A DNA stretch of 28,081 bases from IMG/VR virus record IMGVR_UViG_3300029953_000630; one strand, written 5' to 3'. The notes beneath the pieces are model-generated. The model was given only the letters and a program-made list of their open reading frames with translations. It was not told the DNA's origin and ran no database searches. The position numbers were made by a program, and so were the translations under genes. This stretch comes from a virus. Below are positions 15,499 through 17,907 of the stretch, one piece after another (within the stretch, counting starts at the first letter, position 1; each line of letters opens with the position of its first letter).

Positions 15499-17907
15499 AT
15501 GAAACTAGGAACCGCAGGTAGTGCAATGGAAGTTGGTGGGGCATTAACCCGCCCCAGAGCATTCTCGTTCAACAACAGTGCTTTGGCTTTCAAGCTCTTT
15601 TCGTCGGGCATCTACAATAGCAAGATTGAAGCTATCCTCCGCGAATTGGCTTGCAACGCCAGGGACGCTCATGTCGCTGCTGGCAAAGCCGACACACCTT
15701 TCGAGATTCACCTGCCTACCGCTTTCGACCCGACCTTCCGCCTTAATGACTTCGGCACTGGCCTGAAGTACATCGAGGGGGGCTGCAAACAGTGCCATGG
15801 TGTTGGTCTTGTAGAGACCCAGCACGGTGATACCCCCTGCCCCGACTGCGACGGCACTGGCGACTATGATGCCGTCATTAGCCTGTACTGCATCTACTTC
15901 GCCAGCGACAAGAACGACTCCAATGAGTTCATCGGTGCCATGGGCATCGGCTCCAAGAGCCCCTTCTGCTATGACGAAAAGGGCGGCGGATTCTCTATCA
16001 CCAACCGCTACGAGGGTGTCACCCGCATCTATCAGGCAGCGGTACACAATGGCTTCCCCACGGTCGTCCTTCAGAGCAAGGAGGATACCCCGGACTCCCC
16101 CAATGGGGTGGAAATTTCCCTCCCGGTAAAGATTGGTGACATCTGGGAGTTTGAGAACAAGGCACGTAGTGTGTTCGAGTTCTTCTCCCCGTTGCCGATT
16201 TTCAACAAAGAAATTTCGATAAACAAACAGATTTACACCATCAGAACCGAGAAGTGGGGTCTGCGTGACAACACCGTCAGCACCATCAGCGGTCTCCGGG
16301 CGATTCAGGGCATCGTGCCCTACGATGTGGGCGACATCGACATCAGCCGCATGAATACCCACCAGCGGCGTATCAGCGAGATGGAGTTGGATATCTTCCT
16401 CCCGATTGGCGACTTGGAAGTTACCGCTTCCCGCGAGTTCATTCAGTTGGACGAACGTACTGTCGGCAACATCCTGAAGGCTCTAGACGGGGTTCATGAG
16501 GGGATGTTGGAGGAAATCAAGAAGAAGATTGACCAGTGCGCTGCTGTCTGGGAAGCACGGCTCCAGATTTACGACCTGACTTCGCGAGGCGGAAGCCTCG
16601 GCAAGATTGTCAACGATGCCTACAACAACGGTCTACTCTTGGGCAACTACAGCCACTTCACCATGAGCGATGAGATGGCCGTGGTCAACAAATCCGACTA
16701 TGAGGGCATTCAGCTCACTCAGTACAGCTACAATTTTCGGGCTGAGAAGAGAGCCAAGAAGGAATCACTGTTCTCCTTCAACGCCGCGTCTGTCAAAAAC
16801 ATGCGTGACCGCATCGCAGAAGACCCGACATGCCGCAAGAACTACGATGTACGGGTGGAAGTCGAGCCCAAGGTGGCCTTCGTCATCAATGACCTGAAGG
16901 TCTCTGCGGATAAGTACATTGGCTACTTCCTCCAGTGCGCGGTTGACCGTGGCGGCAAGACGTTGGTGTACTGCGTCAATCGTCAGAACAAGTCAGTGGA
17001 CATGAGCACGGTGATGTCGCAGGGGCTCACCATGATGGAGAAGCTTGGCAATCCGCCTGTCACCCTCGCTTCCGAGCTGAAGGCACGCTATGGCGAATTT
17101 GTGGACACTCCGCGAGAGAAGGGAGTAGCCATCCCCCGCCAACGCCGCAACGTCTCGGTACTGGTGAACGAAGTGCCCCACCCCCGCCGTGGCAGCGCGG
17201 GCTGGGCGAAGGCTTGGGACAAGGCTGACAACGATGTCATCGACCTCCCCGGCATGAAGTATTACGTCATTACGGATGGCAGTGGCTCCGGCCACGAGTC
17301 CACGGGGTTCTACAAAGCCCGGGAGTTCGTGAGGTTTGTCAATTCGGTTCGCGAGTCGAACCTTCTGGATGTTCCGGTCTACGGTCTGAAGGCTAACTCG
17401 AAGCTGATTGAAGGTGCTGATTGGAAGCCCTACATGCCAGCGGTCTGGGCGGCTGTCAAGAAGCACATGACCCCGGCTCGTGAACAGCGCATGACCATGG
17501 TGGATTGCATTGGCAACTTCTCTACCAGTTGGGATTTCGTGTTCGATTACATGACCGAGCACCCCATGGACGCAGAGAGCCCGGTACAGCAGTTCGTAGT
17601 CAAATTGAATAAGGCCAAGGAGAGCCGCACTAAGGCGGAAGGCACTGCGTTGCAGAGCGTACTTCAGGTAGCCGCCGCCCGTAATAAGTACACGATGCCG
17701 CAGCGAGTGGTTATCGACTTCGGGAAGAAGTGGGATGAAGTAAAAGAATTCTACCCGATGATGAAATATACTGGCCGTTCTAGCTGGATGGCTGGTACAA
17801 TAGAGGAAGCGGTGGTAGTAACCAACTACTTCAAGCTGGAAGATGCGAATCGTGAAGCACAGTCCAGCATTAACGATAACATCAAGGAGATGACCGCATA
17901 TGTCTAA
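15499..17907 (+). CDS. GHKL-type ATPase domain protein with DnaJ-like CxxCxGxG zinc finger (~803 aa)
   Basis: N-box ILRELACNARDAH (E-L-x-x-N-A-x-D-A). G1 box NDFGTGL (DxGxG). CKQCHGVG...CPDCDGTG repeats. ATG at 15499 with RBS GGAGAGAAG. Confidence 0.6.
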   Translation: MKLGTAGSAMEVGGALTRPRAFSFNNSALAFKLFSSGIYNSKIEAILRELACNARDAHVAAGKADTPFEIHLPTAFDPTFRLNDFGTGLKYIEGGCKQCHGVGLVETQHGDTPCPDCDGTGDYDAVISLYCIYFASDKNDSNEFIGAMGIGSKSPFCYDEKGGGFSITNRYEGVTRIYQAAVHNGFPTVVLQSKEDTPDSPNGVEISLPVKIGDIWEFENKARSVFEFFSPLPIFNKEISINKQIYTIRTEKWGLRDNTVSTISGLRAIQGIVPYDVGDIDISRMNTHQRRISEMELDIFLPIGDLEVTASREFIQLDERTVGNILKALDGVHEGMLEEIKKKIDQCAAVWEARLQIYDLTSRGGSLGKIVNDAYNNGLLLGNYSHFTMSDEMAVVNKSDYEGIQLTQYSYNFRAEKRAKKESLFSFNAASVKNMRDRIAEDPTCRKNYDVRVEVEPKVAFVINDLKVSADKYIGYFLQCAVDRGGKTLVYCVNRQNKSVDMSTVMSQGLTMMEKLGNPPVTLASELKARYGEFVDTPREKGVAIPRQRRNVSVLVNEVPHPRRGSAGWAKAWDKADNDVIDLPGMKYYVITDGSGSGHESTGFYKAREFVRFVNSVRESNLLDVPVYGLKANSKLIEGADWKPYMPAVWAAVKKHMTPAREQRMTMVDCIGNFSTSWDFVFDYMTEHPMDAESPVQQFVVKLNKAKESRTKAEGTALQSVLQVAAARNKYTMPQRVVIDFGKKWDEVKEFYPMMKYTGRSSWMAGTIEEAVVVTNYFKLEDANREAQSSINDNIKEMTAYV

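Follow-up and report, generated by a model that had tools for sequence, protein, structure and literature searches.

A metagenomic phage rIIA protein with an Hsp90-like GHKL ATPase domain and a putative zinc-knuckle insertion at the hinge of its ATP lid

The locus at positions 15,499 to 17,907 of a 28,081-nucleotide stretch of viral DNA (IMG/VR record IMGVR_UViG_3300029953_000630, here termed 'the window') raises the question of whether a phage encodes a new kind of ATPase, or whether a long-known phage protein carries an additional element. The original prediction, made from the letters alone, described the open reading frame (ORF) at this locus as a GHKL ATPase fused to a DnaJ-type zinc finger, in an architecture that it considered unusual. 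The analysis reported here identifies the gene as rIIA, which is among the oldest known phage genes (the classic 'rapid lysis' and anti-Rex gene of T4); rIIA and rIIB are historically famous for Benzer's fine-structure map and for the triplet-code experiments. Taken as a whole, the locus is very probably best explained as an rIIA gene coupled to rIIB, the product of which combines an Hsp90-like GHKL ATPase domain with a putative zinc-binding insertion at the hinge of its ATP lid, and which may act as a switch.

15499..17907, + strand: rIIA gene (802 aa), assigned by PHROG 612, by BLASTP against T4 rIIA and by 908 homologues

The frame opens with the ATG at 15499 and ends with the stop at 17907, as had been proposed. 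Two other starts are available: a TTG upstream at 15481, and the internal residue M10, where the gene call of the Joint Genome Institute (JGI) begins (P0001, 793 aa). The ATG is favoured over both because homologues likewise begin 'MKL...', a start that is also found in the consensus of 93 homologues. The protein matches PHROG 612 ('RIIA lysis inhibitor') over its full length (E=1.1e-98, residues 1-764 on profile positions 1-708 of 725), and can be aligned by BLASTP with T4 rIIA (NP_049616, from NC_000866 12-2189) at 31% identity across residues 12-349 (349 columns, E=5e-35). Over this homologous region the T4 protein shares the N-box, G1, G2 and (A/P)SRE motifs described below, whereas the C-terminal halves of the two proteins (~450 residues) do not align. 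The homologues number 908 at E<=1e-5; among 50,697 deposited phage records, 2,796 contain an rIIA match by tblastn, every one of them below 60% identity, and in an exhaustive HMMER scan residues 1-230 match the representatives of 12,760 clusters formed at 50% identity (E<=1e-3), of which 8,766 remain at E<=1e-10. NCBIfam yielded no match for either the rIIA or the rIIB of the window. By sequence, therefore, the ORF is a full-length rIIA orthologue: a familiar gene in a variant form.

The existence of a GHKL ATPase domain at the rIIA N-terminus, followed by a variable C-terminus, has already been published (Iyer, Anantharaman, Krishnan, Burroughs and Aravind, Viruses 2021; PMC7824862). With that domain already known and with a full-length match to PHROG 612, the architecture as such loses its claim to be unusual. 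In the library searched, the rIIA-GHKL statement was found only in that paper, and nothing was found that links rIIA with Hsp90, HtpG, HATPase or Bergerat. The motifs of the domain in the window protein, and of the segment that follows it, are these:

15643..15666, + strand: Bergerat motif I (N-box), residues 49-56, ELACNARD, aligned to RELISNxSDA of TRAP1 and HtpG

15748..15762, + strand: Bergerat motif II (G1 box), residues 84-88, DFGTG, aligned to DNGVGM of HtpG

15934..15957, + strand: Bergerat motif III (G2 box) at the end of the ATP lid, residues 146-153, GAMGIGSK, aligned to GQFGVGFYS of Hsp90

16087..16128, + strand: motif IV region, residues 197-210 (TPDSPNGVEISLPV), aligned by hhalign to 'DRGTEITLHL' of HtpG

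16426..16437, + strand: ASRE loop, residues 310-313, bearing the putative catalytic arginine of an Hsp90-type middle domain, aligned by hhalign to HtpG

Across 94 aligned rIIA sequences, R48, E49, N53 and D56 of the N-box (in the context RELACNARDAH), D84, G86 and G88 of the G1 box, G146, G149, G151, S152 and K153 of the G2 box, and R312 and E313 of the ASRE loop are all invariant, and T197 and G203 of motif IV are at least 90% conserved. The N-box and G1 box that had first drawn attention to the locus are thus genuinely present. E49 would be the putative general base and N53 a putative Mg2+ ligand. Because E49, N53, D84, the G2 glycines and R312, with which GHKL enzymes bind ATP and hydrolyse it, are invariant, rIIA is most economically regarded as a candidate active ATPase.

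The closest relatives of this domain are found in the Hsp90 family. An hhalign comparison of the rIIA profile with E. coli HtpG extends over 269 columns (probability 92.7%, E=4e-7), pairing rIIA residues 29-353 with HtpG residues 15-377, and sets A-S-R312-E313 ('vAASREsL') on 'LNVSREILQ' of HtpG, a loop in which Hsp90 has the catalytic arginine of its middle domain (R380 in yeast). When a hidden Markov model (HMM) of the rIIA alignment was compared with 177,635 PDB sequences, only Hsp90-family chains were recovered (TRAP1 at E=6e-8, HtpG at 1.6e-3); phmmer with the single rIIA sequence against PDB gave just one spurious match (E=0.57). An AlphaFold2 model built from the 94-sequence alignment has a mean predicted local distance difference test score (pLDDT) of 90.8 and contains the Bergerat alpha/beta sandwich, the fold that serves as the test of GHKL membership. 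The top 37 Foldseek matches of the model in PDB all belong to the Hsp90 family (TRAP1, Hsc82, GRP94, Hsp90 and HtpG, best E=9.8e-15), followed by the ATPase domains of ParE, GyrB and T6 topo II at ~1e-8. The motif similarity from which a GHKL fold had been suspected is accordingly not coincidental. Together, the profile alignments and the predicted model show residues ~20-230 as an Hsp90-like GHKL domain, with the proximal part of a predicted Hsp90-type middle domain, including the invariant R312, behind it. Like HtpG, TRAP1, GRP94 and Hsp82, rIIA displays the N-terminal signature (F..., SLYS.K, RELISN..DA), the G1 and G2 boxes and the middle-domain 'SRE' loop, at an identity of just ~12-18%. 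The SRE motif is common to the whole rIIA family, T4 included (there 'APSRE', R277/E278), and aligns with the Hsp90 catalytic-arginine loop.

Two CxxCxGxG repeats had been noticed close behind the G1 box. Both are real, and they form a discrete insertion.

15766..15861, + strand: 32-residue putative zinc-knuckle insertion, residues 90-121 (KYIEGGCKQCHGVGLVETQHGDTPCPDCDGTG), delimited as an insertion relative to the family and by a gap in T4, and supported by the model and by sub-threshold Pfam matches

The first knuckle (CKQCHGVG, residues 96-103, nucleotides 15784-15807) contributes C96 and C99, and the second (CPDCDGTG, residues 114-121, nucleotides 15838-15861) contributes C114 and C117. 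With 12 Cys and 60 Gly among its 802 residues, the protein would be expected to contain ~0.001 CxxCxGxG motifs by chance; since two occur, 18 residues apart, and 28 of the 120 closest homologues have such a pair at this position of the alignment, the pair is not a product of chance. The ground state of the rIIA family from G1 to G2 is a segment of 38 residues ('DxGxGLSHEDVxxLYCTYFxSxKxxSNxxIGALGLGSK'); in the window rIIA it is 70 residues long, and deletion of residues 90-121 returns exactly the 38-residue form. In the BLASTP alignment the gap in T4 rIIA falls exactly across the zinc motifs, T4 having the short loop 'SDFDIQGDDNSPG' in place of the 32 residues. The insertion begins straight after the G1 box and precedes the helix with which the ATP lid begins, with G2 (G146xxG149xG151-S-K) and motif IV (T197...G203) further downstream. 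The zinc motifs, which had been placed behind the GHKL module, therefore lie inside it; and because they do, the '~600-aa uncharacterised region' said to follow them in fact holds the remainder of the ATPase domain, together with the Hsp90-like catalytic loop (A310-S-R312-E313) and the conserved body of rIIA.

In the AlphaFold2 model the insertion is predicted with a pLDDT of 93-96 as a beta-hairpin (strands 104-107 and 110-113) between the knuckles, which is the shape that would be expected of a single Cys4 zinc centre. One putative zinc centre, predicted from sequence and model, would thus be formed by C96, C99, C114 and C117 at the hinge of the ATP lid. Both the cysteine-rich domain of DnaJ and Anti-TRAP resemble the insertion in having a CxxCxGxG pair, presumably for one Cys4 centre, with a beta-hairpin between the knuckles. 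The central domain of DnaJ has four such repeats and two zinc centres, in contrast to two repeats and one centre here; Anti-TRAP, like the rIIA insertion, has a single DnaJ-like centre. Scores against both families fall below their Pfam cut-offs: the isolated insertion reaches 23.9 bits (E=4e-5) against Anti-TRAP (PF15777, cut-off 32), and 21.6 bits against DnaJ_CXXCXGXG (PF00684, cut-off 32.7), for which the score in context is 17.5 bits. Pfam finds neither a J domain nor DnaJ C-terminal domains in the window rIIA. Because there are two repeats, sub-cut-off scores and no J domain, the label 'DnaJ-type' is apt for the type of motif but incorrect if it is meant to assign the element to the DnaJ domain family. 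Nor is there a fusion in the sense of a joined DnaJ domain: the element is a loop embedded in the ATPase domain between G1 and G2, without the J domain, G/F region and C-terminal domains of DnaJ. It is apparently a minority variant within rIIA that has so far gone undescribed, and it is the sole unusual element of the protein.

The distribution of the insertion points to a loop that has been elaborated many times. A loop with two CxxC motifs is present in 36 of the 241 homologues that were fetched, and all 36 are metagenomic. All four cysteines are conserved among them, most having the flanks 'K[FY]xKGG-C...C-xGTGDYDAV', whereas the spacer between the knuckles is hypervariable in sequence and ranges from 10 to 43 residues; the net charge averages -1.3 over the 36 insertions and is -3 in the window rIIA. 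The same loop is occupied in other sequences by insertions of 8-12 residues, in another set by a Cys-free insertion of ~40 residues ('NPAAEYVY...'), and in the T4-like lineage ('LSDxQIRG...GGLYTTYF') by long Cys-free insertions and by a different CxxC...CxxC ribbon that lacks GxG (P0151, P0193); the loop of T4 rIIA itself is the short version of the loop in this last lineage. As the site also accommodates Cys-free insertions and a zinc ribbon of another type, the loop after G1 is an insertion 'hot-spot'. In a rough neighbour-joining tree computed with the insertion masked, and merely indicative as to the history of insertion states, the CxxCxGxG form is distributed over three or more distinct clades, each interspersed with insert-less sequences, a pattern implying that the insertion was lost repeatedly, was spread by recombination, or both. 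A tblastn search of the 50,697 phage records with the 71-residue insertion region revealed, at this sensitivity and among the matches listed, no deposited phage with the insertion: the 40 best-scoring matches listed are rIIA genes spanning just 39-45 residues, and these matches therefore gap over it.

The association with rIIB is maintained irrespective of the insertion.

17900..19132, + strand: rIIB gene (410 aa), matching PHROG 609 'RIIB' (E=2.3e-56), with a precomputed Pfam assignment to PF26926 (Phage_T4_rIIB) on the identical JGI gene

The start of rIIB overlaps the stop of rIIA by 8 nucleotides, and rIIA is translationally coupled to rIIB. Conservation of the neighbourhood in related phages had been proposed as a check, and it is borne out: rIIB lies directly downstream of rIIA, in the same orientation, at six of six loci (the contig of the window itself, three relatives with the zinc insertion, one with a Cys-free insertion and one that is insert-less), whatever the insertion state. 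The arrangement of rIIA followed by rIIB in an accessory early-gene context is also that of T4. When the six rIIB proteins were aligned (a small sample), no feature was found to co-vary with the insertion state of rIIA. The rIIB of the window has 410 residues, as against 312 in T4: residues ~300-410 (18800-19132, + strand) form an extension of ~100 residues beyond T4 rIIB, with a helix-turn-helix-like segment of XRE type ('RxAAGLTxxQVAKELDVTxxxVxxxE') for which Pfam gives no match at E<=0.01, and at its C-terminus the protein has a strongly acidic tail (EEDEYEEDEDCDEEDDGGY), which four of the six aligned proteins share regardless of state.

In T4, rIIA and rIIB are accessory genes needed against RexAB abortive infection, by a mechanism that is unknown, and RIIB itself can trigger a CARD-gasdermin defence (PMC10312443; bioRxiv 10.1101/2025.11.20.689424). 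Against that background, the rIIA of the window could act as an ATP-driven conformational switch or clamp and, with rIIB, could form an accessory counter-defence and membrane-integrity module. The zinc knuckle would then provide a rigid scaffold on which a hypervariable loop is displayed beside the nucleotide pocket, and the displayed loop would either make protein-protein contacts specific to the lineage or modulate the closure of the lid, at a fast-evolving site of rIIA. Because the loop after G1 is a hot-spot for lineage-specific insertions, zinc knuckles included, the ATP-lid hinge is probably an interaction or regulatory surface. A bolder proposal, which we regard as clearly improbable, is that rIIA is a highly diverged phage Hsp90-type ATP clamp, with the N-terminal signature and the middle-domain catalytic arginine of Hsp90, that together with rIIB remodels or holds either a membrane complex or a Rex-like component of abortive infection from the host or a prophage, its zinc knuckle being an element for recognition of a client or partner, coupled to nucleotide state; if true, it would offer a concrete biochemical mechanism for the 70-year-old rII problem.

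Of the competing explanations, the most serious holds that the zinc knuckle is an essentially neutral decoration, accommodated in a permissive surface loop where zinc merely stabilises the extra residues, with no partner and no regulatory role. Unrelated insertions (8-12 residues, ~40 Cys-free residues, two types of zinc ribbon) do occupy the same loop; insert-less sequences (P0075, and the group of P0030, P0036, P0041, P0042 and P0060) are nested in zinc-bearing clades; and the presence or absence of the insertion makes no difference to the core catalytic motifs. However, the four cysteines, the GxG turns and the flanks (GGC, GTGDYDAV) have been kept across sequences that are ~35-43% identical overall, the insertion sits at the hinge of the ATP lid and not in an arbitrary loop, and the recurrent, independent elaboration of a single loop better fits a contact surface under diversifying selection. 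We hold neutrality to be a doubtful, if serious, account; were it correct, the finding would reduce to the routine annotation of a metagenomic rIIA.

A zinc ribbon of the TFIIB, topoisomerase I or A2L kind could, alternatively, bind nucleic acid and tether rIIA to DNA or RNA. The isolated insertion does give weak, sub-threshold Pfam matches to A2L_zn_ribbon and to TFIIB-type ribbons, many GHKL relatives act on DNA (topo II, MutL, MORC), and genes for Ku and for an HNH endonuclease lie nearby; but the insertions are acidic, both on average and in the window, the nearest GHKL clade is Hsp90 and not the DNA enzymes, and T4 rIIA is described as associating with the membrane and not as bound to DNA, all of which makes a tethering role very unlikely. 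As to a novel fusion of a GHKL ATPase (of the MORC/Hsp90 kind) with a DnaJ zinc finger, forming a new ATPase of defence or anti-defence with no relation to phage genes known so far, it can point to a GHKL fold and CxxCxGxG motifs that are both present; yet the rIIA match is full-length with rIIB adjoining, Hsp90 ranks above MORC, the zinc element is intra-domain with two repeats that score 17.5-21.6 bits against a cut-off of 32.7 and has no J domain, and the rIIA GHKL domain was published previously (PMC7824862). Given the rIIA assignment, a MORC-like novel fusion is excluded and the proposal as a whole is scarcely credible. The comparison with MORC and Hsp90-like proteins that was drawn in the original prediction is thus upheld for Hsp90 and falls away for a MORC-like defence module. 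MORC, paraMORC and other conflict-system GHKL ATPases score below Hsp90 against rIIA; neither the S5-fold, coiled-coil or CW features that are specific to MORC nor a sequence-level match to MORC was found in it; and its membership of MORC/paraMORC was rejected, Hsp90 being closer and the MORC accessory domains lacking.

Several observations weigh against the explanation that we prefer, that of an Hsp90-like ATP switch with a functional zinc insertion at its lid hinge. The window rIIA on its own gives no Pfam HATPase match, either whole or with the insertion deleted, and it is the family profile and homologues that provide the sequence-level support for GHKL membership; of the homologues, the insert-less P0069 matches HATPase_c_3 at 30 bits (cut-off 25). 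The insertion is dispensable for core rIIA function, since insert-less sequences nest within zinc-bearing clades. Beyond residue ~353 the protein is not convincingly Hsp90-like, so that 'clamp' behaviour is extrapolated by analogy. ATP hydrolysis, zinc binding and partner contact are putative, as are a tetrahedral geometry of the cysteines and any placement of the insertion relative to a dimer interface; and no Rex-like system is known for the host of the window phage.

16558..17907, + strand: C-terminal body of rIIA, residues ~354-802, conserved within the clade and with no confident solved relative

The point about the C-terminal body can be put in numbers. Residues 230-802 are modelled at a pLDDT of 92.5, and a Foldseek search with them returned weak Hsp90 matches alone (best E=8.4e-4, probability 0.72, template-modelling (TM) score 0.14) and nothing else significant. 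The clamp behaviour of Hsp90 needs its C-terminal dimerisation domain; that domain and the distal middle domain are not recognisable in rIIA, which also has neither the MEEVD motif nor the charged linker of Hsp90. To our knowledge, no Hsp90 has a zinc knuckle in its lid, and we know of no demonstration of chaperone activity for rIIA. As the model of residues 230-802 matches Hsp90 weakly, rIIA is here called Hsp90-like and is not filed as an Hsp90; an Hsp90 middle and C-terminal domain for the remainder of the protein is not claimed.

The basic annotation of rIIA is unchanged by the window, and two experimental handles are gained. An Hsp90-like ATPase with a conserved putative catalytic arginine singles out four residues of T4 rIIA (E47, N51, D81 and R277), of which E47, D81 and R277 correspond to E49, D84 and R312 of the window protein in the BLASTP alignment. 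The specific affinity to Hsp90 and the conserved arginine thus render the old rII question more directly testable. The other handle is the ATP-lid hinge.

The remaining features of the window concern the setting of the rIIA-rIIB pair.

15447..15476, + strand: weak promoter-like site upstream of rIIA, TAGCCA-N18-TATACT, from a consensus scan (9 of 12 matches)

A similar site (TAGACA-N18-TATACT) is found at 19557-19586 (+ strand) upstream of the Ku gene, and TAG(C/A)CA-N18-TATACT may represent an early or middle promoter motif of the phage; in a scan for promoters and terminators around the rIIA-rIIB operon, counts were not above those in shuffled sequences. Just upstream of rIIA, an ORF at 14732-15424 (+ strand) contains a UVR (UvrB/UvrC) motif (PF02151, E=3e-7); the JGI call over this region adds Helicase_C and UvrB matches, and the ORF is a phage-borne fragment resembling the C-terminus of UvrB. 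Downstream of rIIB are a Ku homologue (PF02735, phrog_4873; 19611-20597, + strand) and an R2K-type ATP-grasp protein (PF18299/PF14243; 20938-21846, + strand). The order rIIA-rIIB-...-Ku-...-R2K is kept in a 40%-identical relative (L005, at 14536-15492 and 17632-18411), and Ku likewise comes after rIIB in a further related locus (L008). An 819-residue ORF at 22504-24963 (+ strand), with no PHROG or NCBIfam match, carries precomputed Pfam assignments on the identical JGI protein to MVP_shoulder (PF11978) and, weakly, to Vault_3; it is a protein resembling the major vault protein or SPFH proteins, in a phage.

The phage context of the window follows from its tRNA genes, its HNH endonuclease, Ku, and the contigs of relatives, which are 88-894 kb long and carry DNA polymerase, sliding clamp and similar genes. 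At least some of the source samples have forest or wood labels in their record names, and the phage that carries this rIIA gene is an uncultured, tRNA-rich and probably large phage of soil or peat. Thirteen tRNA genes lie at 544-9997 (+ strand), for Trp, Lys (three), His, Arg (four), Asn (two), Gln and Met, with small ORFs and the HNH endonuclease gene (9270-9839) interspersed among them. Such an array is typical of large or jumbo phages, and two of the predicted tRNA genes are unusually long (96 and 93 nucleotides), possibly through an intron or a mis-call.

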